From contig CALHMG010000186.1 in the NCBI GenBank assembly GCA_938034705.1, forward strand, positions 5,110-69,109: 64,000 nt of DNA. The letters run 5' to 3'. This document shows, piece after piece, positions 4,860 through 56,770 of the stretch. Position 1 is the stretch's first letter; the number at the start of each line of letters is the position of its first letter. The notes beneath the pieces were generated by a model. It searched no databases. It was not told where the DNA came from and worked only from the letters and a program-made list of their open reading frames with translations. Both the position numbers and the translations under genes were made by a program. The stretch is from an uncultured Gammaproteobacteria bacterium. Its GTDB lineage: Bacteria; Pseudomonadota; Gammaproteobacteria; Arenicellales; CALHMG01.

Positions 4860-5247
4860 CGATTCAGTTCCTTTGAATTAATGCCCGTCGATCATAGCCA
4901 CGGGCCTGCCCGGAATTCTGTTGACAATGTTCGGCAATGTGGCCGTAAACGCATGTCTGTCGGTCGATAAAACCCGCTCTTCGGCGGTTTAGGCGGGTCA
5001 CAAGCCGCCGACGCGTTACGGGGCCCGTTTGCCGGCCCCGCAATACAGCGCCCGGAGCACGCTCACGCGAAGCGCTCCCCCATCGAAAGATTCAGCCCAA
5101 GCTGTTGATCCAAAGACCAAAATCAATCGTAATAAATCTTGACTGCAACACTGGGTTTTTAATAACCTAGCCGGCCGCTCAGGATTAGTCGGGGCTGCGG
5201 CCCCCACCGTCGATCGGACACTTTTAACGCTATACGGGCATCTCTCT

Positions 5248-27515: not shown

Positions 27516-30500
27516 CTATCCCGTCGGCCGCCGGGTCCGTGACGATGACCTGTTCGGGGCTTCGCTACCGCCTGACTCATCGTCGAGGGGACGATGTTCC
27601 GGCGCAAGATTCTGCAGTCTTGAGAAGCTCAGCATCACCCGCAGCTCAAGCGCTCGGGCTCCCTGCTCTTTTGCGGTCGAGAGGGCTTCGCGAAACAGTC
27701 GCGTCGCCGTCTCGGTGTCCCGGGCCGAGAGCGCAACTTCACCCTGAACTCGCAGGAGTTCGGCGCGCCAGTGCGCTTCACCGTGAAGCTCGGTGCGCTT
27801 GAGCGCGATTGTCGCGGTCTGGCCTGCACCCTTCACGTCGCCCGCACGCGCCTGGGCGCTGGCAACCATTGACAGAACCCACGGTTGTCCGATGCCGCCC
27901 TGACACTCGCGCATCGCCTTGAGCCCCATGCTCATTGTCTCCAGGCCTTCCTTGAGCTTGTTCTTCATGACCAGCGTCTGCCCTTTGAGGACGATCACGA
28001 CGGCAGACAGATATGAAAATTCGTTCTGAGTCGAAAGACGCGCAAACTGATCGACAATTTTGCTTACGGCGTTGGCGTTGCCCATGCAGATATTGGTTGC
28101 GCAAACCCAGAACAGCGTCATCGCAGCCATAAACGGCTGGGGTGTTTCGCGCGCCGCCTTGAGCGCGCTTTCGCAGGTCATCATGGCCAGCGCCGGATTG
28201 CCCGTCATCCACTGGGTCCATCCCAGATGTCCAAGTACCGCTGCGCGAAGGTCGATTTGTTCGGACAGCATCATGCCCGAATCCGAACCGTCTTCTTCAT
28301 GATCCAGAGCGCTCTCAAAGTGTTCTCGCGCGGTGGAGAAGTTACCGCTCCAGAATTCAACAGCGCCGTCCAGAAAGTCAGCTACCGCCTTTACGTGATT
28401 GCAGCTGTTGTCAGTGGCGAGCGCTCTTGCCCGTCCGGCGAGTTCGCGCGCCTGTTTGAGTTCACCACGCGCGTAGTAGCACGTGAAAAGGCCGCGAATC
28501 GCATCAAGATTCAGGGCATCGCTGTCTACTCGTTCACCCAGTTCAATGGCGCGTTCAAACGCGGCCTGGGCCGCTGTCGATGCAAAACCCTGCAGCGCGC
28601 GGTGTCCGGCGCCAAGCAGAATATGCAAGCGCATTTCGATTTTGTCGGTCTTACTGTTACGCGGTGACAGGGCGATGGCCGCCAGAGCGTTTTCGGCGTG
28701 ATCGATCATCTCCTTGTTTGATGCACGTCCAAACGCATCCTTCGCCGCCCGGGACCAGAACTTTGCTGATTCCCAGTGTCGACCCGCACGCGTCAGATGC
28801 CACGCAATCTCCGCCCAGCCGCCGGCGCCAATTTGGGGTTCGGCTACAAGGACGTCAGCGAGACTTCCGTGCAGTTCAGATCGTCTCTCCAGCAGCAGTC
28901 CGTCGTACGCGGCTTCCTGAATCAAGGCATGTCGGAAGGCATACATCGACTCACGTCGTCTTACTGGCTTTATCACGCCCGTCTCTATCAGCGAGTCGAT
29001 CGCAAGATCTGTGGTTGTCTGATCGCACTGCGCCAGACGCATCAACATGTCGGTTGTGAATTCGCGGCCGATGACGGCAGCTACCGACGCGATGTCGCGT
29101 TCAAAACCGGCTTTGCCGAGTTTGGCGCTGAGCAATTCACGCAGCGATTCGGGAATGCGGGTTTCGAGACCGGCATTCCTGTCTTCTACGCAAAGCGAAC
29201 GTGCGAGTTCCTGCGCAAACAGCGGATTGCCACCAGATCGATCGACAATGGCCTCGCGCGCGAATAAATCGGGTTTGTGAGTGCCGGCGATAACGTCGAC
29301 CAGCTGACCCGTTGCGCCCGCCGTGAGGCTCGCAAGTTCAACATGGGCAACGTGGGGGTGCGATACCCAGGATGCCGGAACTTCTCCGCGTGTTGTCACG
29401 ATGAGCAGAACACGGCGATCCTTGATCCGCGCGATCATCGTTTGCAGAAATTCAGCGGACGTCGGATCGATCCACTGTGCGTCTTCGACTATGGCCAGCA
29501 CCGTTTCGGTATTGGTCAGCTCTTCGAAAAGACCGCTTAACGCGGCGACCGTTTCTTCCTTGCGCAAAATCGGGATCGATCGCGACGCATCGGTGTCATC
29601 GGTATCGAGCAGGAAATTGAAAATAGGTATGGCTTTACTGACGTTTTCGCCTGAATCACGGACCAGTCTGCGCCAGGTGTCGCGAACTTCCAGGTCGTAG
29701 ACGTTTTCTCTTGCAAAACGAGCTGCGTGTTCCAGATGACTCAGAAACGGATACAGCGGTGATGCGGTGTGGTACGGCGAACACTGATAGGTAATCTGCG
29801 TCGGCTTTTCGGCTTCGGTTACAAGCGCCATTTCGGTCGCAAGTCTCGACTTGCCGATACCGGCCTCGCCAGAAATCACAACTACCTGTCCGAGGCCGCG
29901 ACGCGCATCCTCCCAAGCACGTCGAAGGCTCAGCATCTGGCCGGATCGGCCGATCAACGCGCCATCGTCGCTGTGTCGCCGCGACGCGGTCGCGGTGCTG
30001 GTGACGTGGGAAGTGATCGCCTTCCAGACACCCACCGGCTTTTCCATACCGGTCAGTGTGTGCGCTCCAAGATCTTCAAAATCAGCAGCGCGCCCGATGA
30101 GCCGGCGCGTCTGATCGGCAACGACCACCTCGCCAGCGGCGGCAAGGTGATGCAGACGCGACGCGACGTTTGGCGTTTGACCCACAATGGCGTGCTGTTC
30201 GGCCGAGCCCTCTCCAATCAGATCTCCCGCAACAACAAGTCCGGTAGCGATGCCAATGCGCACGGCGAGGGGGTCGGCCCCCTGATAGCCGGGATCGATT
30301 TCGGAAACCGCCTGAACGAGTTCCAGAGCGGTGTGCACCGCGCGCTCCGCGTCGTTCTCGTGGGCATTGGGGTAGCCGAAGTACGTCATGATGCCGTCGC
30401 CAACAAATCGCGCGATGTAGCCATCGTAGTGTTTGATGGTTTCGGTGCACGTGCTTTGGTATCGCCTTAAAATTTCGCGCCACTGCTCCGGGTCGAGGCG

Positions 30501-30857
30501 CTCGGAGAGTCTTGATGAACCGACCAGGTCGCAAAACATCACCGTCAGCTGGCGACGCTCGGCCGCCGTTGAATGTCCTTTCGGGACTTCAATTTTTTCG
30601 ATTTGCGAGTACGGCTCAATTGGATTGGCGAGCACCGAACGCACGGTTGCGTTCTTGGGTGACAGCGCAGGCGCCAGCGCCGCGAGTTCAAGACTGAAAC
30701 TTCGTCCGGCAAGGGACACACCACATCCACCACAGAACTGTTCTTCTTCTGTGTTCTGAAATCCGCAGCTGCGGCAGTTGGACATAAGTGCTGCGCCACA
30801 ATCAGCGCAGAAGCTTCTTTCAGGTCGGTTGTTGTGACTGCAATAAGCGCACTGCAT
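27516..30857 (-). CDS. Multidomain signalling protein: double zinc ribbon + class III adenylate/guanylate cyclase + AAA (STAND-like) ATPase + TPR repeats
   Basis: The N-terminus has CAYCSH..CADCG and CRSCGF..CGGCG. The cyclase core has TVMFCDLVGSS, ARFVGDGIMTYFG and GQTPNVASRL. The P-loop is ISGEAGIGKSRL, and the C-terminal roughly 450 aa is helical repeat. Confidence 0.9.
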   Translation of the reverse strand: MQCAYCSHNNRPERSFCADCGAALMSNCRSCGFQNTEEEQFCGGCGVSLAGRSFSLELAALAPALSPKNATVRSVLANPIEPYSQIEKIEVPKGHSTAAERRQLTVMFCDLVGSSRLSERLDPEQWREILRRYQSTCTETIKHYDGYIARFVGDGIMTYFGYPNAHENDAERAVHTALELVQAVSEIDPGYQGADPLAVRIGIATGLVVAGDLIGEGSAEQHAIVGQTPNVASRLHHLAAAGEVVVADQTRRLIGRAADFEDLGAHTLTGMEKPVGVWKAITSHVTSTATASRRHSDDGALIGRSGQMLSLRRAWEDARRGLGQVVVISGEAGIGKSRLATEMALVTEAEKPTQITYQCSPYHTASPLYPFLSHLEHAARFARENVYDLEVRDTWRRLVRDSGENVSKAIPIFNFLLDTDDTDASRSIPILRKEETVAALSGLFEELTNTETVLAIVEDAQWIDPTSAEFLQTMIARIKDRRVLLIVTTRGEVPASWVSHPHVAHVELASLTAGATGQLVDVIAGTHKPDLFAREAIVDRSGGNPLFAQELARSLCVEDRNAGLETRIPESLRELLSAKLGKAGFERDIASVAAVIGREFTTDMLMRLAQCDQTTTDLAIDSLIETGVIKPVRRRESMYAFRHALIQEAAYDGLLLERRSELHGSLADVLVAEPQIGAGGWAEIAWHLTRAGRHWESAKFWSRAAKDAFGRASNKEMIDHAENALAAIALSPRNSKTDKIEMRLHILLGAGHRALQGFASTAAQAAFERAIELGERVDSDALNLDAIRGLFTCYYARGELKQARELAGRARALATDNSCNHVKAVADFLDGAVEFWSGNFSTAREHFESALDHEEDGSDSGMMLSEQIDLRAAVLGHLGWTQWMTGNPALAMMTCESALKAARETPQPFMAAMTLFWVCATNICMGNANAVSKIVDQFARLSTQNEFSYLSAVVIVLKGQTLVMKNKLKEGLETMSMGLKAMRECQGGIGQPWVLSMVASAQARAGDVKGAGQTATIALKRTELHGEAHWRAELLRVQGEVALSARDTETATRLFREALSTAKEQGARALELRVMLSFSRLQNLAPEHRPLDDESGGSEAPNRSSSRTRRPTG

Positions 30858-31472
30858 ACATCTTCCGCAAGTCAGGAGCCCGACATGTCACGCAGTGATC
30901 TAAAGATCCTGCGCAGCCGGCGCCCCGTCTTGCTATCCCCTTTGACTGATGGCGAACAGCCAATCCTGATTGCTCAGGACAGGTTGTTCGTGGATCGGTT
31001 AACCGATCTCTGTTTTTGTGTGCCCGATGCAGATCGTTGCTGCATCGCGTGGGGTACAGTCTAAGGTCATGCGTTTGGGCGATAAAGACCGACGATGATC
31101 ACGTCGGATTGCCTGCGTGCGCGTTCGTTGCATTGACTGTGTGAACGACCCGCCTAAAGTATGTCGAACGTCCTGCTATCCGCTCCAATTGAAACTGTCG
31201 GCGAACAAATCGATCGTTTGAGTATTTTTTTTCGGGAAAGCGACGTGATTTTGAAGACATAAAAAATATTTCAGGGATGTCACGGTTACGTAGTTACAGG
31301 GTCTTTGACTCGCAATTACCGGGGTTTTGTCCTGACAGCAGCGCCGCGAGACGGGACAGGAAAATGTGTAACATACGCGCGGGCCGGATCAGACAGATGC
31401 GATCCGCCTCAACAGGATGAAACCGGGTGAGTGGGTAATACGCCGGGCGCGGGGCTACTTTCAGGGACACAG

Positions 31473-32345
31473 ATGAGCAAAGCGGGTTCAATCACATGTG
31501 CGGGCAAGAAGGATGGCGCGGGCGCCCAGGCCCTTGCGGTAATTACGACGCAGGCGTTTGCGGCCGCAACCGGCGTTCGCTACATCCACACGCCGTTTTC
31601 GTCTATCGCTCACAACGATGATAACGATCCTCACTGGGCGGCAAGATGGGAAAGATTTTTTAATCTGGGCGAGGGCGCTCCGAGTGACCCCGGTGGTCTT
31701 GAACGCGTTGAACTCAAACGTGTGATGGATATTGATATCGCCGCAACGGATGCCGCTGACAGGCTCTATGTCGTGCAACACGCGCTTGGCTATACCGATG
31801 CCAATCCTGACGCGATCGACGCGATCCGCGCTGATTTGCGTGACCGCTACAACGGACCCGATGCTGACGACAGCTCTGACGTTGATCCGGACGTTGTGAA
31901 TGTCGCCGTACACATTCGCCGCGGCGATGTGTCGAACTCAGGCGTAAACGCTATTCGCTACACCGACAACGAGCGGATCAAGCGAGCACTCGACAACGTT
32001 CTGGACGCAATCAAAAAGATGGGCGAGACCGCATCGGTCACGATCTACTCGGAAGGGTCCATGGATGACTTTGCCGATTTTGTTCAGCCGGGTGTGCAGT
32101 TCAATCTGGGCGGCGACGCGTTTTTGACGTATCACCGGCTCGTCAGCGCGGACGTTCTGCTGATGGCCAAAAGCGCTTACAGCTACTCCGCCGCGATCCT
32201 CAGTCATGGCGCGTGCGTTTATGAGCCCTACCATCGCACTCCCCTTGCCGACTGGATTGCTCTGGACGACACCGGCGACGTACATCGGGTCGCCTTTACC
32301 CTGCGGCTGCGACGTCGCCTGGCGCAACGAAGAGAATCAGACTGA
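31473..32345 (+). CDS. Putative glycosyltransferase of the fucosyltransferase-like (GT11/GT23/GT65-type) superfamily
   Basis: The N-terminus KKDGAGAQALAVITTQAFAAATGVRYIHTPF resembles the G-x-G-N-Q type motif, and the HxRRGD motif is present as VAVHIRRGDVS. The ATG at 31473 is preferred over the upstream GTG at 31431. Confidence 0.5.
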   Translation: MSKAGSITCAGKKDGAGAQALAVITTQAFAAATGVRYIHTPFSSIAHNDDNDPHWAARWERFFNLGEGAPSDPGGLERVELKRVMDIDIAATDAADRLYVVQHALGYTDANPDAIDAIRADLRDRYNGPDADDSSDVDPDVVNVAVHIRRGDVSNSGVNAIRYTDNERIKRALDNVLDAIKKMGETASVTIYSEGSMDDFADFVQPGVQFNLGGDAFLTYHRLVSADVLLMAKSAYSYSAAILSHGACVYEPYHRTPLADWIALDDTGDVHRVAFTLRLRRRLAQRRESD

Positions 32346-32696
32346 CGCCAGACACAATGAAGGTTTCGCGGTGCAGATCGCAGTTGTGTCGCCGCCGACC
32401 GGAATCGGGTTGCGCAGCGACTTACGCGATAGCGCGTGCGTTTCGCCACATACGACCACGCCAGCGTGTTGTGTAATACGCCTGCTCTTTACAGGTGTTA
32501 CTCCGTATAGGGCAACGTCAGGGATGTTCGTATACTTTTTTGATTCGCACGGAGGCCGCAAACACGTTCTGAAACTGCAGTACCGGGGGGAAATCTAATG
32601 GAACATCGCGTATCTGAAACCAGGTCCAGGCACACAGATTCCGGGGGCCGGATGTCCGGGTCTGACATCTCAGGGTCGGGTCGCGCCAATCACAGA

Positions 32697-33395
32697 ATGT
32701 CTCAGGCTCTGGCCGAGTCCTTGAAGCAGGTCGATCTGTTCGCGACTCTTGATGACCAGGCGCTGCGCGCCGTCGCCGGAGTCTGCAGAATTCGTCACTA
32801 CGCCAGCGGCCAGCCTGTTCTTTCCCAGGGTGATGCGGGTACCGACGTTTACTTTGTTGTTGATGGCGAGCTCCGCGCGACGCTGTATTCGCCCACCGGC
32901 CGCGAGGTTGCATTTGAAGAGCTGCCAATCGGTTCCGTGTTTGGAGAACTGGCGGCGATCGACTCCGGGCCGCGCGCGACCACGGTACTTGCGCTGAGTG
33001 ACGCGACACTTGCGGTAATGAGCGCCGAAGGGTTCAAAGTCATGTTAAAGGCGCATCCCGGTATTGGGCTGGTGGTGCTTGAACGATTGACGCAGCTGGT
33101 GCGTCGACTCTGCGATCGTGTCTTTGAATACACCACGCTTGATGTGTCCCAGCGCGTCCAGTCAGAGTTGCTTCGGCTCGCCCAGGGCAAATCGGTTGAC
33201 GGAAACAGCATAGTCATTGACGACTTTCCAACTCATGCGGAGTTCGCCAACAGGATCAGCACTCACAGAGAAGCGGTTACCCGGGCGATAAACGCGCTTG
33301 AGCGTCGTTCACTGATTTCTCGCAGCAGCGGCCAGCTCGTTATCTGTGACTATCGCAAACTTGCAGAGATTGTCGGCGAACTTCGCTCGAACTGA
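32697..33395 (+). CDS. Crp/Fnr-family transcriptional regulator with an intact cNMP phosphate-binding cassette
   Basis: cNMP-binding domain (LFATLDDQAL...FGELAAIDSGPRATTVLA) and C-terminal HTH (HAEFANRISTHREAVTRAINALE). There is no FNR-type N-terminal Cys cluster. The start could also be at 32598 or 32652. Confidence 0.85.
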   Translation: MSQALAESLKQVDLFATLDDQALRAVAGVCRIRHYASGQPVLSQGDAGTDVYFVVDGELRATLYSPTGREVAFEELPIGSVFGELAAIDSGPRATTVLALSDATLAVMSAEGFKVMLKAHPGIGLVVLERLTQLVRRLCDRVFEYTTLDVSQRVQSELLRLAQGKSVDGNSIVIDDFPTHAEFANRISTHREAVTRAINALERRSLISRSSGQLVICDYRKLAEIVGELRSN

Positions 33396-33504: not shown

Positions 33505-34743
33505 ATGACGATAGCAGGGCTCCAGTATCGACCGTCCGGATGGGGCCTTGTTCGAATCGCTGCGTTCGTCGTCGCAATACTCTGGGTGATCGGACTGTTG
33601 TTCCCGGCTCCCGACAAAACCCTGGCTCATGTGCCGATTGCCCGGGATATCGCCGCCGACCCTCGGCTTCGGCCAGCGCTTGCCCCACGCGATGACGGTC
33701 GTGGCGTGCTTGACTACACGACCCTGCGCCAGATCAGTCCACAAACCAAAACGATCGCCTGGGTCGGCGGGTCTTCGACGATGCAGTATCGCGACGTCCA
33801 CAAGGCTCGGAAAAAAAAGAATCAGGACCTCGACAAGGCGGCCAGAAAAGCGAAGCGCCAGAAACGCAAATTGCGGGAGCTGTTGCCATCCAAAGTTCTT
33901 GACGAGTTGACGCAACGGTGTGATCTCGACTCCGTGGTTGACGTCTACATCAACCCCGGCATGCGCACGCTCGATCAGTACATTTTCCTGCAGCATGTGC
34001 TGGCGACGAAGCCCACCGCGTTGATTCTCACTCTCAACCCGTACTGGGCGTTTAACGATTTCGCGCTGAATCGAAGGCAGGATGTGTTCCCTGGTGCGCT
34101 GTATCGCGGTGTTGACGACGAGCTGACGCGTTTTTGGTCGAGTGTGCTTGGACAGCCGAGTGATTTCGCTTACGCGCGAGCCGCCCGGGTTCTCCCGGTT
34201 GTGCGTGACCGATGGGACTACCATCGTCAGCTTTTCGAGTTCTGGCAAGGTGTTCAGCCGAACATCCAGGGTACACAGAAGCAGCGTAACCAGCGCAAGC
34301 GCCAGCTTCGCAAAGAGGCGCAACGCGAATCGGTCGATACACTGAGAATGAGTCGATGTGCGCCCGATTGCATCAACGTCGATCCCGACGGCGCAAGCTA
34401 TCGTTTGCTTCGTCAGATGTTCGAGATGATCAGGAACAGCGGCGTTAACGCTGTCGTATACGAGGCTCCGCTGAATCTGAAAGGGCTGATGGACGATGTG
34501 CCGGACGCATCGGATGAAAATCTTGCCGCGCAGTTTGCGTCTTTGCTGAAACAACAGAGTGCGGCAATCAGAACGATTGCAGACGAGTTCAGTTCGCCGA
34601 GTGTTAGCGTTATCACTGCCGACGACTGGGAACCTGACGGGTTAAAGTTCAACGATGTCATTCATCTTTCGTCGATGGGCAATCTTCCGCAGGAACTGAC
34701 CGACGCCCTGGCACCCATGGTCGGGTGTGGAGCGACCCGGTGA
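33505..34743 (+). CDS. DltD-like / SGNH-type membrane-anchored acyltransferase-esterase (putative)
   Basis: A single N-terminal TM helix (LVRIAAFVVAILWVIGLLF), a block-I-like WVGGSST and a block-V-like DxxH (FNDVIHLSS) near the C-terminus. It lies immediately upstream of, and overlaps, the MBOAT gene. Confidence 0.55.
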   Translation: MTIAGLQYRPSGWGLVRIAAFVVAILWVIGLLFPAPDKTLAHVPIARDIAADPRLRPALAPRDDGRGVLDYTTLRQISPQTKTIAWVGGSSTMQYRDVHKARKKKNQDLDKAARKAKRQKRKLRELLPSKVLDELTQRCDLDSVVDVYINPGMRTLDQYIFLQHVLATKPTALILTLNPYWAFNDFALNRRQDVFPGALYRGVDDELTRFWSSVLGQPSDFAYARAARVLPVVRDRWDYHRQLFEFWQGVQPNIQGTQKQRNQRKRQLRKEAQRESVDTLRMSRCAPDCINVDPDGASYRLLRQMFEMIRNSGVNAVVYEAPLNLKGLMDDVPDASDENLAAQFASLLKQQSAAIRTIADEFSSPSVSVITADDWEPDGLKFNDVIHLSSMGNLPQELTDALAPMVGCGATR

Positions 34744-36002
34744 CCGACACATTCAGCGCATTTAGCTACTTTGTTAACTTCCTGGTGCTGCTGATTGTTG
34801 CGCTACCGGTTTACTATCTTCTGCCTTCGATTTCGCTGCGACGAATCTGGCTGATCGTGATTTCTGCGGCACTGATGTTTTATGTCGCGCCAAAACTTCT
34901 GCTGCTCTATCTGGTTTTCTGGCCTCTTGGCTACGCGCTTGTTGTCCTTTTGCGCAAGCAAAGCGAAAAGTCTGATGGTTCGCTTTATCTGGGGGCGGCG
35001 GTTGTGGCGGCTTTGCTGCCGCTTGTACTGTGGAAGTTGTTCAGTCACGAATTTGAAGCCCAGCTGAACCAGCTTTCTCGGGGTTTTCTGCTGCACGTCT
35101 TCGAGCCCTTCGCGCAAACCGATGCCGTGAAGTCAGCCGTGATTCCTGTTGGCCTGAGTTTTGCCACGTTCAGGCTGATTGATGTCATGGTGCAGACGCA
35201 TCTAGGACTTGTGCAGAAGATTTCGTTTTTGCGGTTCATGTACTTCGGTTTTTTCCCTTCCCTTCTTCCTGTTGGCCCCATTGCCGAATATCGTGAAGCC
35301 GGGGCTGAGAATGACCAGTGCGTTGCGGCCAGCGCAGAAAACTTTGGCGCCGGCGCAATGCGAATCCTGATTGGATGCGCGAAGATCTTCGTTCTGGCCT
35401 ATCCGCTGGCGTGGAGCACGAATATTTTTGAGTATCACGATTTCAACACTGCGGTGATGATGTGGGTAAGCCTGGCGGCATTCGCCATCTACTTCTGGCT
35501 TAACTTCTCTGGTTACTCCGACATTGCTATCGGCACGGCGCGTTTGCTGGGTGTTCAGCTCAAGGAAAATTTCAACAACCCTTACTGGCGACGTAACCCG
35601 CAGGAGTTCTGGGCCAACTGGCACATGAGCCTGACACGATTTGCGCAGCGCAATATTTTTGTTCCTCTCGGTGGCTTCAGAAAAAAGACACAGTTCATCG
35701 CGATATTCTGTACGATCATGACGATTGCGCTCTGGCATGACATTTCAGTGTCGCTGATTCTCTTCGGTCTTTACCACGCTGCCGGATTGATATTCGTCAG
35801 GATCTGGCAGGACCGCCGGTCCGGTTCTGCTGCATCTGTTTCTCCGGCGTCGGATGACGAAAGCCTGGCTCTCGGCGCTCGGGCGAAGGATATCGGTTCG
35901 CGTGTGGCAACTTTCGTCTTTGTTCTGCTGAGCTTTCCGATGCTGGTGCTTCCCTACCACGAATTGCCGGCCTTCTATCTGCGCCTGCTTTCACCCTTCT
36001 GA
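34725..36002 (+). CDS. MBOAT-family membrane-bound O-acyltransferase (DltB/AlgI-like)
   Basis: A multi-TM protein with FWANWHMSLTRFAQRNIFVPLGG and the conserved-His block IALWHD (His codon 35736-35738). GTG at 34725 or GTG at 34740 (GTGA overlap with the upstream stop) could be the start. Confidence 0.9.
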   Translation: MWSDPVTDTFSAFSYFVNFLVLLIVALPVYYLLPSISLRRIWLIVISAALMFYVAPKLLLLYLVFWPLGYALVVLLRKQSEKSDGSLYLGAAVVAALLPLVLWKLFSHEFEAQLNQLSRGFLLHVFEPFAQTDAVKSAVIPVGLSFATFRLIDVMVQTHLGLVQKISFLRFMYFGFFPSLLPVGPIAEYREAGAENDQCVAASAENFGAGAMRILIGCAKIFVLAYPLAWSTNIFEYHDFNTAVMMWVSLAAFAIYFWLNFSGYSDIAIGTARLLGVQLKENFNNPYWRRNPQEFWANWHMSLTRFAQRNIFVPLGGFRKKTQFIAIFCTIMTIALWHDISVSLILFGLYHAAGLIFVRIWQDRRSGSAASVSPASDDESLALGARAKDIGSRVATFVFVLLSFPMLVLPYHELPAFYLRLLSPF

Positions 36003-36017
36003 CCCACGAGTTCAACC

Positions 36018-36164
36018 ATGAAATCTGACAGCCCGGCACGCCCACGCTCTTTCATTTTGACGCTCGCGATAGAGTTCGGTATCGCCTTGTTTGCGGCGCT
36101 CGTCATCTTTCTTACGATTGCGCTGTCTCAGAAGAACATCGAGTTCGTATATCAGGGGTTTTGA
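36018..36164 (+). CDS. Small single-pass membrane protein with a C-terminal F-x-Y-x-x-F motif (DltX-like); not in the supplied ORF track
   Basis: Hand translation gives MKSDSPARPRSFILTLAIEFGIALFAALVIFLTIALSQKNIEFVYQGF*. The ATG lies 15 nt after the MBOAT stop. The N-terminus is basic, one TM helix follows, and the short tail ends in FVYQGF. Confidence 0.55.
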   Translation: MKSDSPARPRSFILTLAIEFGIALFAALVIFLTIALSQKNIEFVYQGF

Positions 36165-36233: not shown

Positions 36234-36470
36234 ATGTCTGACCCACTCTTTGACCTGTTTGCGCAAGGGCTGAAGGTATCGGCTGATCAATTGACGGACG
36301 AGTCTTCCCCGGACAACACGCCTCAATGGGACAGCCTGGCTGCAATGAATCTGGTCTCCCTTATAGAAGACACGTTCGATGTTGAACTGAGCACCCGCGA
36401 CATCATGCAGATGAGATCGATTGGTCTTGCGCGCCAGGCGCTGAAAGACAAGGGTGTCGACACTGTCTGA
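36234..36470 (+). CDS. Acyl/peptidyl carrier protein (DltC-like)
   Basis: 78 aa with phosphopantetheine attachment motif WDSLAAMNLVSLIE (Ser34, codon 36333-36335). Confidence 0.88.
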   Translation: MSDPLFDLFAQGLKVSADQLTDESSPDNTPQWDSLAAMNLVSLIEDTFDVELSTRDIMQMRSIGLARQALKDKGVDTV

Positions 36471-36476
36471 CGCTGA

Positions 36477-36516
36477 AAAGACCTCTGACCGGACTGTTCC
36501 GGTCAGCAGCGTCTTT
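36477..36516 (+). terminator. Terminator/attenuator-like hairpin between the carrier protein and the FkbH-like gene
   Basis: Perfect 9-bp stem CTGACCGGA / TCCGGTCAG with loop CTGT, extended by an outer AAAGAC / GTCTTT pairing and followed by TTTTGGG. Confidence 0.4.
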
Positions 36517-36576: not shown

Positions 36577-38325
36577 ATGAATCCCCTACTCGAGGCTCGC
36601 AAGCGATGGATGGCCTGGTCGCCACAGCATGATGCACCCCGAGTGAGCGTCGGTGTGTTGGGCAGCTACACGGTAGATCCGATGGTGCCTTATCTTGGCG
36701 ACGCGCTGGTTCAGCAGGGGCAGTCGCCGGATATCAGGGTTGCGCCATTCAACCAGCTGATTCAGGGAGCTCACAATCCTGGCGCTGCGTTCGATGGTGA
36801 CATACCTGACACTCTGGTCTTTATCTGGCGAATCGAAGATCTTTTTCCGTCACCAGTCGCACGATTTGTGGAAGGCGACGCCGCGGCGCTGTCAGATGTG
36901 TTTGATGGTCTTGATCAGTTTGCCGCAGCGTTGCGCCAGCTGCGTGCCGGTTTCGAGGGTACGGTCGTTGTGGGGATACCGCCCTGTCCGATGCTTGCGG
37001 TGATGGACATCGAACATCTAGCTGCGCACAGTTCGCTGACTGAACTGCACCGCAAGGTTGTGAGCCGTTGGCTTGATCTGCTCGATGAAATCAAGGGTCT
37101 GCTCAGGGTTGATCTTGATTCCATCGAACGTGCGATTGGCTCAACAAGCGCGGCGGATCCTCGCAAGTGGTATCTGTATCGTCAGCCGTACAAGGACGTC
37201 ATGCACAACGGTGTCGCACAGGCGTTGGCGCGAATTATTCGACTCGAGCGCGGCACGGACCTTGTGAAGTGCCTGGTGGTTGACTGTGATAACACGCTTT
37301 GGGGTGGTGTTGTCGGCGAGGACGGTGTGGAGGGTCTCGCTCTCGGGGAGGATTTTCCCGGCAGCGCATACGTTGATTTTCAAAGACAGCTTGTTGCTTT
37401 GCAAAAAACGGGACTCTTCATCACTCTCGTGAGCAAGAATAACGAAGCTGACGTGATGGAAGTCTTCGACCGCCATGACGCAATGATGCTGCGGCGCGAG
37501 CATCTCTCAACGTGGCGCATCAACTGGCAGCCCAAGTCGCAAAACATTACCGAAATCGCCAGCGAGCTGAATATTGGCCTTGATGCAATCGCGTTTATTG
37601 ATGACAGCTCGTTTGAGATCGAGGAAGTGAAAGCACGCACACCTGAAGTTTTGTGCCATCAGGTTCCTGAAGATGTTGCACTCCTGCCCAAGAGCATTCG
37701 CGACCTGCGAGTGTTTGAAAGAGTCGGGATCACCGAGGATGATCGTCGTCGAACCCGACTCGTGCAGGCCGAGAAGCAACGCATCAGCGCAAAAGGTACG
37801 GTAAGTGAAGAAGAATTTCTGAAAACTCAGGGCCTTTGTCTTACCGTTGGTGAGGCAACTGACGGTCAGATAGATCGAGTTACCCAGCTGATTAACAAGA
37901 CGAATCAGTTTAATCTGACAACCAGACGACGAACCCGCGAAGAGGTAGAAGCACTCGCCAACGCTGCCGATAGCAGAGTTTACTTTGCCACCGCTGCCGA
38001 TCGGTTTGGTGAATACGGTTTGATCGGTGTTGCGGTGGTGTCCTGTGCCGAGCGCAGCTGGCACCTGGATACCCTGCTGCTAAGCTGCAGGGCGCTGGGC
38101 AGAAAGATCGAAACTGCGTTTGTGGCGCGAATTGGCGATGACGCATCCGCGACCGGTATAGCAACGCTGACAGCAGAGTTTATTGAGACCGCAAAAAATA
38201 CCCCGGCAAAATCGTTTTTGCCCGACCACGGATTTACGGTTTCTGGCGCAAACGCTTTTACGGCAGAGATCAAAAATATGCCTCCGTGTCCTGACTTTAT
38301 TCAAGTGAAGAGCTTTGGTTCATGA
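36577..38325 (+). CDS. HAD-superfamily subfamily IIIC / FkbH-like protein (putative carrier-protein loader)
   Basis: HAD motif I VVDCDNTLWGG (37282-37296), LVSKNN, FIDDSSFEIEEV, and a C-terminal GNAT-like region with LLLSCRALGRKIE (Cys codon 38086-38088). Confidence 0.88.
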   Translation: MNPLLEARKRWMAWSPQHDAPRVSVGVLGSYTVDPMVPYLGDALVQQGQSPDIRVAPFNQLIQGAHNPGAAFDGDIPDTLVFIWRIEDLFPSPVARFVEGDAAALSDVFDGLDQFAAALRQLRAGFEGTVVVGIPPCPMLAVMDIEHLAAHSSLTELHRKVVSRWLDLLDEIKGLLRVDLDSIERAIGSTSAADPRKWYLYRQPYKDVMHNGVAQALARIIRLERGTDLVKCLVVDCDNTLWGGVVGEDGVEGLALGEDFPGSAYVDFQRQLVALQKTGLFITLVSKNNEADVMEVFDRHDAMMLRREHLSTWRINWQPKSQNITEIASELNIGLDAIAFIDDSSFEIEEVKARTPEVLCHQVPEDVALLPKSIRDLRVFERVGITEDDRRRTRLVQAEKQRISAKGTVSEEEFLKTQGLCLTVGEATDGQIDRVTQLINKTNQFNLTTRRRTREEVEALANAADSRVYFATAADRFGEYGLIGVAVVSCAERSWHLDTLLLSCRALGRKIETAFVARIGDDASATGIATLTAEFIETAKNTPAKSFLPDHGFTVSGANAFTAEIKNMPPCPDFIQVKSFGS

Positions 38326-39212
38326 CCGCCGCCTACAACGAAATTTCAAGTCGCCTTGAGGCCGTCCCCTACATACGACGGTCGGTAGATGAGGTGAAAC
38401 TCGCCGGCGGTGACCAGTGGCTGGCGACGCTGGACGACCATATGGAGAATTTCGCGGGCTATCTCGCTGAAACCGGCGGCAGCATCGATGACGCGGTTGA
38501 AGGTTTTGTTGAGATGACGCTGGAGACCATCCGTCTGCAGCAAAATTTCTTCAAGACCGGGAAGTTCAATACACTGGACGACTACGATGATCAGGCAGAT
38601 GTCTATCAGGACAGAGACCTGATGGTGAGACGCTACCTGCCGGGGCTTTATCTGGCCCAGCTGCTCTGGAAAAACCATTACCAGAAACTGCGATTTTTCA
38701 CCGATCGAGTTGTGCCTGAGGCGCAATCCGCCGACCGAGCCTTCGACGTTGGCGCTGGACCCGGCACCTTTGGGCTGACGCTGGCCAGTCGTTATCCAGA
38801 ACTTGCGGTCACGTTCAACGACATCAGCCCTTTCAGCGAGGAAATGATTACGGCACTCGCCAAACGAAAAACGGGTATTGATTTCCTGCCTGGCGATTTC
38901 CTCAAGCTCGACGTTACCCGACCCTATGATTTTGTTGTGTTCAGCGAAGTTGTGGAACACCTGAGTGATCCCGGAGCCGGGATGGACAAACTGCTCGACG
39001 TGGTTGCAGCTGATGGCAAGGTTTTCTTCAGCACCGCGACCAACGCGGCGTTTTACGACCACACCATTATTTACGAGTCAGTTGCGGAGATTCGCTCGAT
39101 GATCAAAGACCATGGCTTTGACATTGAGTTCGACGAAGAGGTGATGGCGCTTGAGTCCGGTGATGGTGTTGATGTGATTGACTACAACGCCGTGATCAGG
39201 CGAGCTGGCTGA
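38322..39212 (+). CDS. Class I SAM-dependent methyltransferase (paralog 1)
   Basis: Motif I FDVGAGPGTFG and the post-I acidic FNDIS. Its N-terminal helical domain is shared with the paralog at 39648. There is a 4-nt overlap with the FkbH-like stop. Confidence 0.85.
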   Translation: MTAAYNEISSRLEAVPYIRRSVDEVKLAGGDQWLATLDDHMENFAGYLAETGGSIDDAVEGFVEMTLETIRLQQNFFKTGKFNTLDDYDDQADVYQDRDLMVRRYLPGLYLAQLLWKNHYQKLRFFTDRVVPEAQSADRAFDVGAGPGTFGLTLASRYPELAVTFNDISPFSEEMITALAKRKTGIDFLPGDFLKLDVTRPYDFVVFSEVVEHLSDPGAGMDKLLDVVAADGKVFFSTATNAAFYDHTIIYESVAEIRSMIKDHGFDIEFDEEVMALESGDGVDVIDYNAVIRRAG

Positions 39213-39215
39213 ACC

Positions 39216-39644
39216 ATGGTCGAACCCAACAACGCTGCTGGGCTTGAACTTGCGCACATAGGTTACGTCGTCAACAACATGGACGGTGCCCTGAAGCGGT
39301 TCGTTCGTGAAGGCGCGACCATCGTGATGTCATCCTGTCATGACCCGATTCAAAAAGTTCACGTGGCGGTGGTTGAACTGCCGGGCAACGTTTTGATCGA
39401 GCTTGTCGCGCCAGACGACAGCGGCAGTTCGCCGGTTGAGGCTCGGCTTGGTCGCGGCGGTGGGCTGGATCATCTTTGTTACTTTACCGATGATATTGAG
39501 GCCGCGATAAAAACCGAAACCGAACAGGGTGCCGTCGTCGTGTGCGAGCCGGTATTTGCGGTCGCCTTCAATGCCACGGTGGCGTTTGTCCATCGACGCA
39601 CCGGCCTTGTGGTTGAATATATGACTCGACCGGAGGTTGCTTAG
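39216..39644 (+). CDS. VOC-family (glyoxalase / methylmalonyl-CoA epimerase-like) protein
   Basis: LAHIGYVVNNMDGALKRF...IELVAP...LDHLCYFTDDIEAA...VEYM is the typical paired beta-alpha-beta-beta-beta VOC pattern with His/Glu metal ligands. Confidence 0.8.
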   Translation: MVEPNNAAGLELAHIGYVVNNMDGALKRFVREGATIVMSSCHDPIQKVHVAVVELPGNVLIELVAPDDSGSSPVEARLGRGGGLDHLCYFTDDIEAAIKTETEQGAVVVCEPVFAVAFNATVAFVHRRTGLVVEYMTRPEVA

Positions 39645-39647
39645 TCG

Positions 39648-40574
39648 ATGGACCGGACCGAACTCGAGAAATTTGCCAGGCCCTTCGCCAGCCAGTGGAT
39701 TGCGGAAAACGTGCCGATGATTTCCGGCGGGCTGACGGTGTTCCAGGAAGCGCTGGCGGACGACGACCGCGAGATTATCGATGATGTGTTCTGGCGTTTT
39801 ATCCAGAACCACGAGGACCCCAGGGCCGCTCTCGCCGGCGGGCTCGAGTCTTTTTCGACAATCAGCGTGGATTTTCTCAGGCTTCAGGGGCGCTTTATGC
39901 GTAGCGGCAAGTATCGCGCGGCCGCCAACCCGGAGACGTTGCAGGAGCTGTACGCCGACGGCGAGCGAATGCGCGGTTACTATCTCGACGGTCTTTTTCT
40001 GACCTATGCGCTGTGGCCGAACCACGTGCAGATGCTCAAATTCTTCAGAGATCGATTTCTTGCGCGTTTGCCCGAGAACGTTTCGTTGCTCGAGGTCGGC
40101 GTGGGTCATGGATTGATGGCGTCATTGATGCTGGAGCAGTTACCCGGCAGTAGCTATCACGGGATCGATATTTCCAGTCACTCAATCGACTACGCGATGG
40201 AAAACTTTTCACCTGCGCTCAAACAGGCGGGTCGGGTAAAGATGAGTTGCGCTGATATCACCGACCCGGCGCTCAAGCCCGGACATCATGATGCAGTTGT
40301 ATGTTGCGAAGTACTTGAGCATGTTCTTGAGCCCGATGTTCTGCTCGAGGCGCTGAGTCGGTCCGTTGAGGCTGGCAGTTTCGGGTTTCTCACGACGGTC
40401 GCAAATATGGAAGCCGAAGACCATGTCTATCTCTTTCATGATGCGGATGACATTCGCACCCATATCACCAGGGGCGGATTTGAGATTGTCGAAGACCAGG
40501 CCAACGGGTTGCCGGGAATGGAAGATGCGACCCCGCGTCCGCTGAACTACAGCGCAATCGTTCAACGCACCTGA
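39648..40574 (+). CDS. Class I SAM-dependent methyltransferase (paralog 2)
   Basis: Motif I LLEVGVGHGLM and CCEVLEHV. Its N-terminal region aligns with the paralog at 38322 (LRLQGRFMRSGKY vs IRLQQNFFKTGKF; LWPNHVQMLKFFRDRF vs LWKNHYQKLRFFTDRV). Confidence 0.85.
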   Translation: MDRTELEKFARPFASQWIAENVPMISGGLTVFQEALADDDREIIDDVFWRFIQNHEDPRAALAGGLESFSTISVDFLRLQGRFMRSGKYRAAANPETLQELYADGERMRGYYLDGLFLTYALWPNHVQMLKFFRDRFLARLPENVSLLEVGVGHGLMASLMLEQLPGSSYHGIDISSHSIDYAMENFSPALKQAGRVKMSCADITDPALKPGHHDAVVCCEVLEHVLEPDVLLEALSRSVEAGSFGFLTTVANMEAEDHVYLFHDADDIRTHITRGGFEIVEDQANGLPGMEDATPRPLNYSAIVQRT

Positions 40575-40687: not shown

Positions 40688-41386
40688 ATGTTTGATAGCG
40701 TTTATCTGTCTCGCAAAAAACCGATGAACGGATATCTCGCACCGTGCCGGAGTTTTAGTTTGTACGACCTTGCCGAAATCCGCAGCGCACTCAATGTGGC
40801 GCCGGGCCTTCAGTTTGAATCCGCAGAGAAGCGAGCTTCAGTCGCGTTGATTCTCAGAAGCGTTGATGACGAAACACAGGTTTTTTTGATTCGCCGCGCC
40901 GACAAGGATGGTGACCCATGGTCCGGACATATGGCATTTCCCGGTGGCCGGGTTGAAGCAACAGATCGCGATCTGGAGCACACCGCGCGGCGGGAAACTC
41001 TGGAGGAGACTGAGCTCGTCATTACGAGTGAGGATTGTATTGGTCGCATAGATGACGTCCAGGGCCGCTCCAGAGGCAGGAGTATCGGGCTGGTTATTTC
41101 ATGTTTTGTGTTTCAGATCGATGCTGACCGTGGTGAGCGACCGGTTGGCAACTATGAAGTCGCCTCAACCCACTGGGTACCGCTGTCCTGGTTCAGTGAT
41201 TCAACTCGATTCCTTCATTACTACCCACCGAAGCCGCACGGCGACGTCTATCCTGGGATGCGGATCGGTGACCATGAACGCGAAATACTGTGGGGCCTGA
41301 CGTATCGGTTCATGTGCGATTTCTTTTCCCGGCTTGGGACTTCGCTCCCTGAAACTACAGGCGAAATCACACCAAAATCCGGCTGA
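40688..41386 (+). CDS. Nudix hydrolase, CoA-pyrophosphatase-like
   Basis: Nudix box GGRVEATDRDLEHTARRETLEETEL, preceded by FLIRRADKDGDPWSGHMAFPGG, which resembles the CoA pyrophosphatase signature. The start is uncertain (40688 or 40724). Confidence 0.78.
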   Translation: MFDSVYLSRKKPMNGYLAPCRSFSLYDLAEIRSALNVAPGLQFESAEKRASVALILRSVDDETQVFLIRRADKDGDPWSGHMAFPGGRVEATDRDLEHTARRETLEETELVITSEDCIGRIDDVQGRSRGRSIGLVISCFVFQIDADRGERPVGNYEVASTHWVPLSWFSDSTRFLHYYPPKPHGDVYPGMRIGDHEREILWGLTYRFMCDFFSRLGTSLPETTGEITPKSG

Positions 41387-55249: not shown

Positions 55250-56116
55250 GTGACACACAGCATGACCGCATTCGCTCGCACAGAATCCGTCTCGGATCTG
55301 GGCGAAATATCACTGGAAATGCGCTCGGTAAACCACCGATATCTGGAGATGGTGTTTCGCCTCCCGGAGGAATTGCGCCGGTTTGAGCCACGCTATCGCG
55401 AACTCATTTCCAAAAGATTTTCCCGCGGACGGGTCGACGCGAACATGCGGTTCAAGCCAAGAGATCTGAACGCTGACGGGGCCGAACTCAATCCCGAAGC
55501 GGTGGCGAAGCTGAACGCGGTCGTCGATCAGTTGACCACGGCAATGCCTTCTCTTGGACAGCTGCGAGCGGTTGACGTTTTGAACTGGCCGGGTGTAATC
55601 AAAACGCCGGAGCTTGAGATGGACAGACTTGGTGCCCAGGCGGAAGAGATTTTTCTTGAAGCACTCGATCAGATGGCTGATCGCCGCGCGCGCGAAGGCG
55701 GATCGCTCAACGAGTTGATCACGGGTCGCATGGACGAGATGCGCACGATAGTCGGTAACCTGAAGCCCGTGATTCCCGAATTCGAAACGCACTTCAGAGA
55801 GCGCCTTAACGAAAGACTCAAGTCCGTCATAGAAGAACTCGATTCGTCACGGCTTGAGCAGGAAGTGATGCTTTTCCTGCAAAAGAGCGACGTCGCCGAG
55901 GAGCTTGACCGTCTGACTCTGCACATTGATGAGGTCGATCGCGTGCTCAGCTCGAACAAGCCGGTCGGTCGACGGCTTGATTTTCTGATGCAGGAACTGA
56001 ACAGGGAAGCCAATACGCTCGGTTCCAAAGCAGCCGACCCTCGCGTTACAGCCGCATCGGTTGACCTTAAAGTGCTGATCGAACAAAGTCGCGAACAGGT
56101 TCAGAACATTGAATAA
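55250..56116 (+). CDS. yicC: YicC-family stress-induced protein
   Basis: SMTAFART...EMRSVNHRYLE...REANTLGSKA. It occupies the conserved position upstream of gmk-rpoZ. Confidence 0.9.
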   Translation: MTHSMTAFARTESVSDLGEISLEMRSVNHRYLEMVFRLPEELRRFEPRYRELISKRFSRGRVDANMRFKPRDLNADGAELNPEAVAKLNAVVDQLTTAMPSLGQLRAVDVLNWPGVIKTPELEMDRLGAQAEEIFLEALDQMADRRAREGGSLNELITGRMDEMRTIVGNLKPVIPEFETHFRERLNERLKSVIEELDSSRLEQEVMLFLQKSDVAEELDRLTLHIDEVDRVLSSNKPVGRRLDFLMQELNREANTLGSKAADPRVTAASVDLKVLIEQSREQVQNIE

Positions 56117-56134
56117 GGCCACGGGCAGTTTGCA

Positions 56135-56770
56135 ATGACCGCGACGAGTACTCAGCCGGCGCGCATGATTATCCTTTCGGCACCTTCGGGCGCCGGGAAA
56201 ACTTCTCTGGCCCGTGCGCTGGTGGATGCTGAGCCTTACGCGGATCTTTCCATCTCCCACACGACCAGGGACCGACGTCCCGGTGAAGCCGACGGCGTTC
56301 ACTATCATTTCGTTGATCATGCAACGTTCGAGGAGATGATCGAGCGGGATCTCTTTCTTGAATACGCCCGTGTCTTCGACAATCTCTACGGCACGTCGCG
56401 AGAGGCGGTTGATCCGATCATCGAGGCCGGGACCAACATTATTCTCGACATCGACTGGCAGGGGGCGCGAAAGGTCCGTGCGCGGATGCCCGAATGTGTC
56501 AGCGTTTTCATACTGCCACCCTCGCGTCAGGCGCTGGCCCAGCGCCTGAGCGACCGGGGGCGGGACTCTGCCGACGTCATCGAGCGGCGCATGCGCGACG
56601 CGGCCAGCGAGGCCTCGCACTACGGCGAGTACGACTGGGTCGTCATAAACGACGATTTTGATCAGGCTTTGGCCGAGTTACGGGCGATTCTGGCGGGCAG
56701 GCCTGTCAGTGAGCCGGCTTCGTCCGACCGTGTAAAAGGCCTCGTCGCCAGCCTGTCGGAACCTGCCTGA
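56135..56770 (+). CDS. gmk: Guanylate kinase
   Basis: P-loop SAPSGAGKTSL plus TTRDRRPGEADGVHYHFV. Confidence 0.95.
   Translation: MTATSTQPARMIILSAPSGAGKTSLARALVDAEPYADLSISHTTRDRRPGEADGVHYHFVDHATFEEMIERDLFLEYARVFDNLYGTSREAVDPIIEAGTNIILDIDWQGARKVRARMPECVSVFILPPSRQALAQRLSDRGRDSADVIERRMRDAASEASHYGEYDWVVINDDFDQALAELRAILAGRPVSEPASSDRVKGLVASLSEPA

Follow-up and report, generated by a model that had tools for sequence, protein, structure and literature searches.

A predicted FkbH-type loader of an acyl carrier protein within a DltB-like MBOAT gene cassette of an uncultured gammaproteobacterium

Contig CALHMG010000186.1 (GenBank assembly GCA_938034705.1) comes from an uncultured gammaproteobacterium of the Arenicellales, and we analysed a stretch of 64,000 nucleotides (nt) from it, positions 5,110 to 69,109 of the forward strand (the window; all positions below are counted from its first letter). 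The gene at 36577-38325 encodes an FkbH-type enzyme and is the fifth in a row of genes that run on a single strand with short gaps or overlaps. The four genes ahead of it encode an SGNH-like protein, an MBOAT (membrane-bound O-acyltransferase), a microprotein and an acyl carrier protein (ACP). Sixteen other distinct loci, drawn from several phyla, carry the same cassette, and the part that the FkbH protein may play in it is the subject of this report. The genes, and the domains and motifs of FkbH, are as follows (aa, amino acids).

33505-34743 (+), predicted DltD-like, membrane-anchored SGNH acyltransferase, 412 aa from the likely ATG at 33505
34725-36002 (+), DltB-like MBOAT, 425 aa, without a fused C-terminal Tyr motif (PF03062, E 5e-19)
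36018-36164 (+), DltX-like microprotein, 48 aa, one transmembrane helix, ending ...IEFVYQGF (motif scan)
36234-36470 (+), stand-alone ACP, 78 aa (PF00550, E 1e-6), 106 nt upstream of FkbH
36577-38325 (+), FkbH-type putative glyceryl-ACP loader, 582 aa (TIGR01686, AlphaFold, Foldseek)
36577-37263 (+), N-terminal domain of FkbH, aa 1-229 (AlphaFold and Foldseek)
37264-37734 (+), HAD-IIIC phosphatase domain of FkbH, aa 230-386, followed by a linker helix
37282-37296 (+), HAD motif I, D236-C-D238-N-T240, nucleophile and general acid/base, invariant in 83 of 83 proteins
37807-38322 (+), GNAT-like domain of FkbH, aa 411-582 (Foldseek and sequence profile)
38083-38103 (+), putative catalytic loop S503-C504-R505-A-L-G508-R509, with Cys504 as the putative acyl-S-enzyme residue

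The reading frame at 36577-38325 (+) is open over 582 codons in the open reading frame (ORF) listing of the window, and the start chosen by the gene caller in the protein collection is Met12, which gives 571 aa. The NCBIfam model of the FkbH domain, TIGR01686, matches aa 230-556 with 304.1 bits (E 1.1e-90; curated cut-off 146.65), a score far beyond chance, and the HAD-IIIC model TIGR01681 matches with 72.2 bits (cut-off 35.75). No Pfam model matches the protein. The collection holds more than 7,400 homologues, the closest 73% and the next 47% identical, and those that carry a name are annotated as 'FkbH-like protein' or 'HAD-IIIC family phosphatase'. Judged by its sequence, the window protein is a genuine FkbH-type enzyme of the long form.

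Its motifs are those expected of the family. VVDCDNTLWGG (aa 234-244, nt 37276 onward) holds D236-x-D238-x-T240, LVSKNN at aa 284 holds S286, WQPKS at aa 317 holds K320, and FIDDSSFE at aa 340 holds D342 and D343. The C-terminal block LLLSCRALGRKIE begins at aa 500 (nt 38074), and in it codon 38086-38088 is TGC, Cys504. A sequence-only reading of this DNA had described the gene as an FkbH/HAD-IIIC enzyme with a retained phosphatase motif, preceded by a stand-alone ACP and ending in a GNAT-like region. The model scores and the invariance of the HAD residues (83/83, below) agree with that description. The VVDCDNTLWGG, LVSKNN and FIDDSSFE motifs and the C-terminal S-C-R block which it named all lie where it had placed them, the ACP gene with its DSL serine was found 106 nt upstream, and both structure and profile searches returned GNATs for the C-terminal region.

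To place the catalytic residues, reference FkbHs were picked through their gene context in annotated plasmids and not by protein name. The ZmaN reference is the HAD-IIIC gene at the position of ZmaN in the zwittermicin cluster of Bacillus thuringiensis pBMB400. The methoxymalonyl reference is a 341-aa FkbH from a cassette of hydroxyacyl-CoA dehydrogenase, ACP, acyl-CoA dehydrogenase and FkbH genes, and the reference for the tetronate or butenolide arrangement is a 670-aa FkbH encoded between a FabH-like ketosynthase III and an ACP. In an alignment of the window FkbH with nine close homologues and these three references, all HAD catalytic residues and S503-C504-R505...R509 were common to the window protein, the homologues and the references. 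A second cysteine, Cys232, was also invariant in this alignment, and the sample was therefore widened to 83 FkbH-family proteins, one each from 83 loci. D236, D238, T240, S286, K320, D342 and D343 were each invariant in all 83, as were S503, C504 and R505; position 509 was R in 79 and K in four. Cys504 is the sole invariant cysteine of this sample. It is thus the conserved residue that the sequence-only reading had taken it to be, and the S-C-R block around it is present in the ZmaN-position, methoxymalonyl and tetronate-type proteins.

Cys232 (nt 37270-37272) was rejected as the catalytic cysteine, the position being C in 44, V in 31 and A in eight of the 83 proteins. It lies in K-C-L-V-V-D and is the first residue of HAD strand beta1 in the AlphaFold model. 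It seems to be invariant in close relatives and in the classic polyketide-type FkbHs, and is easily mistaken for the catalytic residue.

An AlphaFold2 model of full-length FkbH, built on 76 sequences, has a mean predicted local distance difference test score (pLDDT) of 92.3 and a predicted template-modelling (TM) score of 0.84, and divides the protein into an N-terminal domain followed by a capless HAD and a GNAT domain. The best Foldseek match is the structural-genomics entry 3SLR, the N-terminal and phosphatase domains of Bacteroides fragilis BF1531 (E 4e-24, TM-score 0.82 on the target), and MDP-1 matches the capless HAD core. The C-terminal domain matches dozens of GNATs (RimI, SpeG, Gcn5, AAC(6') and others) with TM-scores of 0.6-0.7 on the target. 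A sequence profile of the same domain searched against the PDB returned GNAT proteins only, over the alpha3-beta5-alpha4 region, with a best E of 1.3e-3. In the model Cys504 sits in the loop between strand 494-502 and helix 511-525, which is the GNAT beta4-alpha3 loop; in most relatives this loop reads R-V-L-G-R-G, that is, GNAT motif A, R/Q-x-x-G-x-G/A. The model suggests that a phosphate-binding loop with two invariant arginines was recruited to bind the acyl phosphate, the phosphopantetheine or both, with Cys504 as the nucleophile. The N-terminal alpha/beta domain (aa 1-229) is confidently modelled and resembles the N-terminal part of 3SLR. It is missing from the short ZmaN and methoxymalonyl-type enzymes and is therefore not needed for the core chemistry; docking and regulation are candidate roles for it in the long-form FkbHs.

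The MBOAT gene encodes a protein whose best PDB sequence matches are DltB structures (6BUG and 8JEM, E ~1e-15), with the WH(G/D) histidine aligned; this residue, His338, is invariant in 12 of 12 cassette MBOATs. On sequence grounds the protein is DltB-like but is not DltB. The SGNH-like ORF that precedes it is open from GTG 33346 (up to 465 aa), and its gene adjoins the MBOAT gene in every cassette locus. An N-terminal hydrophobic or transmembrane helix lies ahead of the catalytic domain of the SGNH-like protein. In the family alignment Ser90, in GGSS, is invariant, as is His387; Asn178 and the Asp384 of D-x-x-H are nearly so. Pfam gives weak, scattered matches that include Lipase_GDSL_2. Foldseek with the AlphaFold model (pLDDT 61.9) gives, at low TM-scores, DltD 3BMA as the best match (E 8.8e-5) and then GDSL/SGNH esterases. 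The DSL serine of the ACP aligns with the phosphopantetheine serine of solved ACPs.

The microprotein gene occupies an apparent intergenic gap exactly between the MBOAT and ACP genes; it falls below the 50-aa limit of the ORF listing and is unannotated. In homologous loci a gene of about 40 aa lies 3' of the SGNH-like gene and ends in FVYQGY or FVYRDF, and this prompted a scan of the whole window for ORFs of at least 15 aa that end in an F-x-Y-x-x-F-like motif. Two such ORFs were found. Only the one at 36018-36164, with the sequence MKSDSPARPRSFILTLAIEFGIALFAALVIFLTIALSQKNIEFVYQGF, belongs to the cassette; the other is a 16-aa ORF at 56101-56151 (-). When nine microproteins from equivalent positions were aligned, E19, F43 and Y45 were invariant. 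FXYXXF is the acyl-shuttle motif of DltX, the Tyr of which takes D-alanine from DltC via DltB and passes it to DltD; such a Tyr shuttle is established for DltX and for PatA (PMC12148441).

The cassette was recovered both from the FkbH side (L004, L006-L012, L014, L015, L024, L027 and L042) and by a reciprocal search with the SGNH-like protein (L088-L090). In all 16 loci its genes are contiguous and co-oriented, and often overlap. Three context look-ups of FkbH homologues each showed an ACP, an FkbH, an MBOAT, a protein of 360-380 aa and one of about 40 aa, and L088-L090 carry genes for ACP, FkbH, MBOAT, SGNH protein, microprotein (...FVYGGY), a protein of the vicinal oxygen chelate (VOC) fold and a methyltransferase. 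An ACP gene adjoins FkbH in 73 of 87 loci. Among 80 loci from GTDB representative (reference) genomes, the MBOAT set is present in ten (L008-L012, L014, L015, L024, L027 and L042), whose hosts are Alphaproteobacteria, Hydrogenedentes, Actinomycetota, Acidobacteriota and one unclassified bacterium. A profile of the SGNH-like family found about 200 clusters (50% identity) among 1.84 billion representatives. By these sequence counts the cassette recurs but is not common.

A neighbour-joining tree groups the window FkbH with the other MBOAT-linked FkbHs in a single 15-tip clade with two exceptions, and the FkbH of L042 falls outside it. The window protein is thus placed apart from its relatives in capsule-type loci, in a separate MBOAT-linked clade and not among the FkbHs of polysaccharide loci.

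The Tyr-shuttle peptide appears to be modular. Most loci encode it as a free microprotein, L090 (3504-4871) has it as a C-terminal fusion to the SGNH protein, and in L006 (14280-14579) its motif lies on a 99-aa two-helix protein. In L008 (12043-13518) and L042 (11944-13446) the MBOAT carries the Tyr motif, fused at its C-terminal end. L006 and L008 have another SGNH partner, which looks AlgJ/AlgX-like by its motif order (DGH...GPS).

An adenylating ligase was looked for and none was found. A PROSITE-style pattern for the AMP-binding signature has no match in any frame of the 64-kb window or in the called genes of the cassette loci, although the pattern is not fully sensitive and missed an unrelated AMP-binding gene of L006 that Pfam lists. 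The Pfam AMP-binding model has no match inside any cassette. A DltA-like ligase was accordingly rejected as the loader of the ACP, both scans of the window and the cassettes having been empty. By analogy, FkbH would occupy the role of DltA. The sequence-only reading had suggested that an MBOAT shuttle might be entered without DltA, and this suggestion gains from the synteny of the set in 16 other loci, from the FVYQGF microprotein and from the lack of an adenylation signature.

Three further genes follow FkbH, and most cassette loci conserve a VOC protein and a methyltransferase ortholog along with the rest of the set.

38322-39212 (+), S-adenosylmethionine-dependent methyltransferase 1, 296 aa (Pfam class I methyltransferase families)
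39216-39644 (+), VOC-fold protein, 142 aa, glyoxalase-I/methylmalonyl-CoA-epimerase-like (PF13669, E 6e-21)
39648-40574 (+), S-adenosylmethionine-dependent methyltransferase 2, 308 aa, a distant paralogue of methyltransferase 1

The two methyltransferases share 26% identity over their full length (E 1e-25) and both resemble the single methyltransferase of L004. The best NCBIfam match of methyltransferase 1 is BioC, the malonyl-ACP O-methyltransferase, and is sub-threshold (E 2e-12). The VOC protein is likewise sub-threshold for TIGR03081, the methylmalonyl-CoA epimerase model; among PDB entries it matches glyoxalase I (3HDP and 2QH0, E ~5e-15) and, at ~1e-3, methylmalonyl-CoA epimerase. Glyoxalase I and methylmalonyl-CoA epimerase both act through a metal-stabilised enediolate beside a thioester, and such chemistry would, by analogy, fit the epimerisation of a 2-hydroxyacyl thioester at C2.

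The mechanism described for OzmB runs from 1,3-bisphosphoglycerate to a phosphoglyceryl-S-enzyme, a glyceryl-S-enzyme and then glyceryl-ACP (reviewed in PMC9057759). The FkbHs in the literature covered are all described as users of 1,3-bisphosphoglycerate, OzmB by assay and the others by proposal (PMC9057759, PMC7489565, PMC8949500). By this analogy the window FkbH most likely charges the adjoining ACP with a glycerate-derived acyl group without ATP. With moderate confidence we propose that it uses 1,3-bisphosphoglycerate to load the ACP and feeds a Dlt-type export acylation through the MBOAT, the microprotein and the SGNH protein.

By analogy with OzmB and ZmaN, Cys504 of the S-C-R-x-x-G-R loop would attack the acyl phosphate of 1,3-bisphosphoglycerate to give a 3-phosphoglyceryl-S-enzyme, the HAD site (Asp236/Asp238) would strip the 3-phosphate, and the GNAT-like domain would load the glyceryl group onto the ACP at its phosphopantetheine thiol. 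Tailoring of the acyl-ACP by the VOC protein and the two methyltransferases could follow, giving a mono- or di-O-methylglyceryl unit that is perhaps epimerised at C2. This tailoring is speculative, and a mono- or di-O-methylglyceryl-ACP as the species given to the MBOAT is the weakest step of the scheme. On the model of DltB, DltX and DltD and of PatA and PatB, the DltB-like MBOAT (His338) would move the acyl group over the inner membrane onto Tyr45 of the microprotein (FVYQGF). The SGNH protein would take it on Ser90 and esterify an extracytoplasmic envelope acceptor, which is a speculative element too. We infer the donor, the final acyl group and the acceptor from these comparisons.

Several points weigh against this proposal. 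The MBOAT scores 138.4 bits against TIGR04091, the DltB equivalog model, and so stays below its cut-off of 375, and the ACP resembles generic ACPs and not DltC. Phmmer searches of the PDB and profile searches with the 412-aa SGNH-like protein gave no sequence-level match to DltD or to SGNH proteins, and the structural model that does point to DltD is of moderate confidence (pLDDT 61.9). Cys504 is a putative acyl-S-enzyme residue, assigned from its invariance and its location; in canonical GNATs the thioester lies some 6-7 residues upstream of R/Q-x-x-G-x-G and not at -1. No locus for the synthesis of a polysaccharide or other acceptor was seen among the other large ORFs of the window. The source of the locus is a marine metagenome, and all the sequencing runs that carry its sequence, of metagenomes and of isolates, are of DNA type or untyped. 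MBOATs with a fused Tyr motif, as in L008 and L042, use acyl-CoA in the characterised systems (PMC12148441).

The FkbH of the window shares with known loaders (OzmB of oxazolomycin, ZmaN of zwittermicin, FkbH of FK520, and Tmn16, RkE and Mad7 of tetronates) the HAD-IIIC and GNAT-like core, the DxDxT, S, K and DD motifs, the S-C-R...R loop, a discrete partner ACP and the expected chemistry. It differs from them in being only about 30% identical, in an extra N-terminal domain of the kind seen in 3SLR and in tetronate-type enzymes, and in that its product apparently goes to MBOAT/SGNH export acylation and not to a polyketide synthase, a non-ribosomal peptide synthetase or a FabH-like enzyme.

With the Dlt system of teichoic acid D-alanylation (DltA, DltB, DltC, DltD and DltX) the cassette has in common a carrier protein that would bear the acyl group, a DltB-like MBOAT without a fused Tyr motif, a separate microprotein with C-terminal FXYXXF, and, as predicted, a membrane-anchored DltD-like SGNH protein with Ser and Asp-x-x-His. 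In contrast to Dlt, no DltA or other adenylation enzyme was found in it, its predicted loader being FkbH, and a glycerate derivative is proposed in place of D-alanine. It also has methyltransferase and VOC genes, its MBOAT falls below the equivalog cut-off, and its ACP, which would stand in for DltC, is not DltC-like. Its hosts belong mostly to diderm phyla, with some Actinomycetota, and there is no teichoic-acid context.

The PatA/PatB, AlgI/J/F/X and WssH/I systems, whose donor is acetyl-CoA, likewise combine an MBOAT, a Tyr shuttle motif and an SGNH transferase acting on an extracytoplasmic polymer, and the MBOATs of L008 and L042, with their fused Tyr motif, resemble PatA and AlgI in particular. 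MBOAT/SGNH pathways other than Dlt are fed by acyl-CoA and have neither a carrier protein nor a DltX-like microprotein (PMC12148441, 2025), whereas the window cassette has a carrier protein, a microprotein and a putative dedicated loader.

A glyceroyl-bearing surface glycan is known from Campylobacter jejuni NCTC 11168, which makes 2,3-di-O-methylglyceroyl-pseudaminic acid (PMC3068675), and in the flagellin glycosylation locus of strain 11168 the fkbH-domain gene cj1302 adjoins an annotated 'epimerase', cj1301 (PMC7099621). By annotation only, the window is similar in having an FkbH, an ACP, two methyltransferases and an epimerase-like VOC protein. ACP and methyltransferase genes presumably also lie near cj1302. 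In C. jejuni, in contrast to the scheme proposed here, the acyl group is amide-linked to a cytidine monophosphate (CMP)-sugar in the cytoplasm, a process that involves neither an MBOAT nor an SGNH protein nor a microprotein.

In an alternative reading the FkbH and ACP, together with the methyltransferases and VOC protein, make an acyl-ACP for the cytoplasm, for example for N- or O-acylation of a nucleotide sugar or lipid, while the MBOAT, microprotein and SGNH protein form a separate O-acetylation system that uses acetyl-CoA. Besides the C. jejuni precedent of a di-O-methylglyceroyl group N-linked to a CMP-sugar made in the cytoplasm (PMC3068675), it can draw on the 66 of 80 reference long-form FkbH-ACP loci that have no MBOAT and lie beside PglD-like and GNAT_6 cytoplasmic acyltransferases, and on the fused Tyr motif of the L008 and L042 MBOATs, as in the acetyl-CoA users PatA and AlgI. 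We regard it as unlikely because of the reciprocal contiguity of the set, the absence of a suitable cytoplasmic acyltransferase and the DltB-type MBOAT with its separate microprotein. The SGNH-side search always returns FkbH and ACP, and none of the 16 contiguous, co-oriented cassette loci has a cytoplasmic acyltransferase able to use an ACP. The MBOAT-linked FkbHs form a distinct clade, and in the sole characterised case of a DltB-type MBOAT with a separate microprotein the acyl group comes from a carrier protein (PMC12148441).

The ACP might also be loaded from another acyl phosphate or phospho-acid, or the final acyl group might be another one, such as a lactyl or pyruvyl group formed by dehydration with the VOC protein. 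We give this about the same low probability as the cytoplasmic route. Donor specificity is not readable from sequence, and the identity of only about 30% to ZmaN and the methoxymalonyl-type FkbHs leaves room for a different donor. The VOC protein is closest to glyoxalase I, and chemistry of that kind could bring about an isomerisation or dehydration of 2-hydroxyacyl or 2-oxo thioesters. Related polysaccharide loci, moreover, encode a fusion of a MaoC dehydratase and a short-chain dehydrogenase/reductase (SDR), which resembles the dehydratase-ketoreductase pair that turns glyceryl-ACP to lactyl-ACP in some polyketide loading modules. The window cassette, by contrast, has two methyltransferases and neither a dehydratase nor a reductase, every catalytic residue of its FkbH is conserved, and the FkbHs of the literature covered are described as using 1,3-bisphosphoglycerate, by assay for OzmB and by proposal for the others (PMC9057759, PMC7489565, PMC8949500).

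That the window protein is a HAD phosphatase only, with a degenerate acyltransferase-like tail and no carrier loading, as the name 'HAD-IIIC family phosphatase' given to relatives by NCBI pipelines and the lack of a Pfam domain might suggest, is highly improbable, given the confidently modelled GNAT-like domain, an S-C-R...R loop as invariant as the HAD catalytic aspartates, the ACP gene next to FkbH in 73 of 87 loci, and an FkbH-specific model matched at twice its cut-off.

The proposed loading of the ACP by FkbH for export acylation would have wider consequences. A search of the full-text literature, with subscription-only literature outside its scope, gave nothing relevant on FkbH or HAD-IIIC proteins with MBOAT, DltB or AlgI, and neither the SGNH-like protein nor this MBOAT is covered by a specific NCBIfam model. 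A cassette that follows Dlt logic with an FkbH loader is thus apparently undescribed within the literature searchable. Bacterial MBOAT-SGNH systems tune the cell surface, including lysozyme and cationic-peptide resistance and the chemistry of the biofilm matrix. We see an even chance that the cassette represents a second carrier-protein-dependent MBOAT pathway of the envelope, found in diderm phyla and Actinomycetota, which places (O-methyl)glycerate esters on an extracytoplasmic polymer by means of ATP-independent FkbH loading and a DltX-like Tyr carrier. If true, it would contradict the current generalisation by which a carrier protein and a microprotein are confined to Dlt, and would predict a new class of envelope ester. 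Its loading step would be energetically cheaper, with a glycolytic acyl phosphate in place of ATP-dependent adenylation. The scheme predicts glyceryl-ACP made out of 1,3-bisphosphoglycerate, an acyl-Tyr45 and an alkali-labile (methyl)glycerate ester in the envelope. It would extend the FkbH enzymes, known from polyketide and non-ribosomal peptide biosynthesis, to the biology of the cell envelope.

Most long-form FkbH-ACP pairs in genomes lie in polysaccharide loci and not in natural-product clusters. The 66 reference loci without an MBOAT (within L013-L087) are of the polysaccharide type, with genes for GT4 glycosyltransferases, UDP-glucose dehydrogenase, AsnB-like amidotransferases, PglD-like (hexapeptide) and GNAT (GNAT_6) acyltransferases and sulfotransferases. 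In 18 of the polysaccharide-type loci the MaoC-dehydratase/SDR fusion is present, which from its sequence could turn glyceryl-ACP into lactyl-ACP. Glycan acylation with groups of the glycerate or lactate type may have a large reservoir in the FkbH-ACP pairs of such loci. Long-form homologues of FkbH, with 30-36% identity, also occur in metagenome-assembled genomes labelled as archaeal (L025, L040, L080 and L084), the labels being Promethearchaeota, Thorarchaeota, Nanoarchaeota and Methanospirillaceae.

Outside the genes discussed so far, the row in the window has a Nudix gene at its 3' end, a Crp/Fnr-family gene at its 5' end and a hairpin between the ACP and FkbH genes.

40688-41386 (+), Nudix hydrolase, weakly CoA-pyrophosphatase-like (PF00293, E 5e-15)
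36485-36506, perfect 9-bp GC-rich hairpin just 3' of the ACP stop, between the ACP and FkbH genes
32598-33395 (+), Crp/Fnr-family regulator that binds cyclic nucleotide monophosphates (PF00027, PF13545), directly upstream of the cassette

Whether the Nudix gene, the last of the row, is part of the cassette is uncertain. Its product matches NF007980 with 30 bits, far under the cut-off, and none of the other cassette loci examined has a counterpart listed. Its substrates might be CoA or phosphopantetheine species, or the gene may be unrelated. The flanks of the window are of a housekeeping kind, with suf, ubiB, gpsA, ctp, hemN, moa/moe, rpoZ-spoT and recG genes.

The hairpin reads CTGACCGGA-CTGT-TCCGGTCAG and is followed by CAGCGTCTTTTGGG. 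From its sequence and position it may be an attenuator that sets the stoichiometry of ACP to FkbH, or an element of mRNA stability. A role as terminator was rejected, as terminator-like sites are not in excess in the region, with 10 found and 11.5 expected in shuffled sequences.

A 304-aa ORF at 31431-32345 (+), upstream of the Crp gene, has no Pfam or NCBIfam match and no counterpart in the cassette loci examined. The Crp/Fnr-family gene is itself peculiar to the window, with no conserved counterpart in the other loci; its product may control the cassette. At 27516-30857 (-) lies a gene for a protein of 1113 aa with an N-terminal zinc-ribbon-like CxxC pair and an apparent class III nucleotidyl-cyclase motif (FCDLVGS...FVGDG), after which comes a long region that resembles ATPases and tetratricopeptide repeats. 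The proximity of this cyclase-like gene to the gene of a Crp-family protein that binds cyclic nucleotides suggests cyclic-nucleotide control of the cassette.

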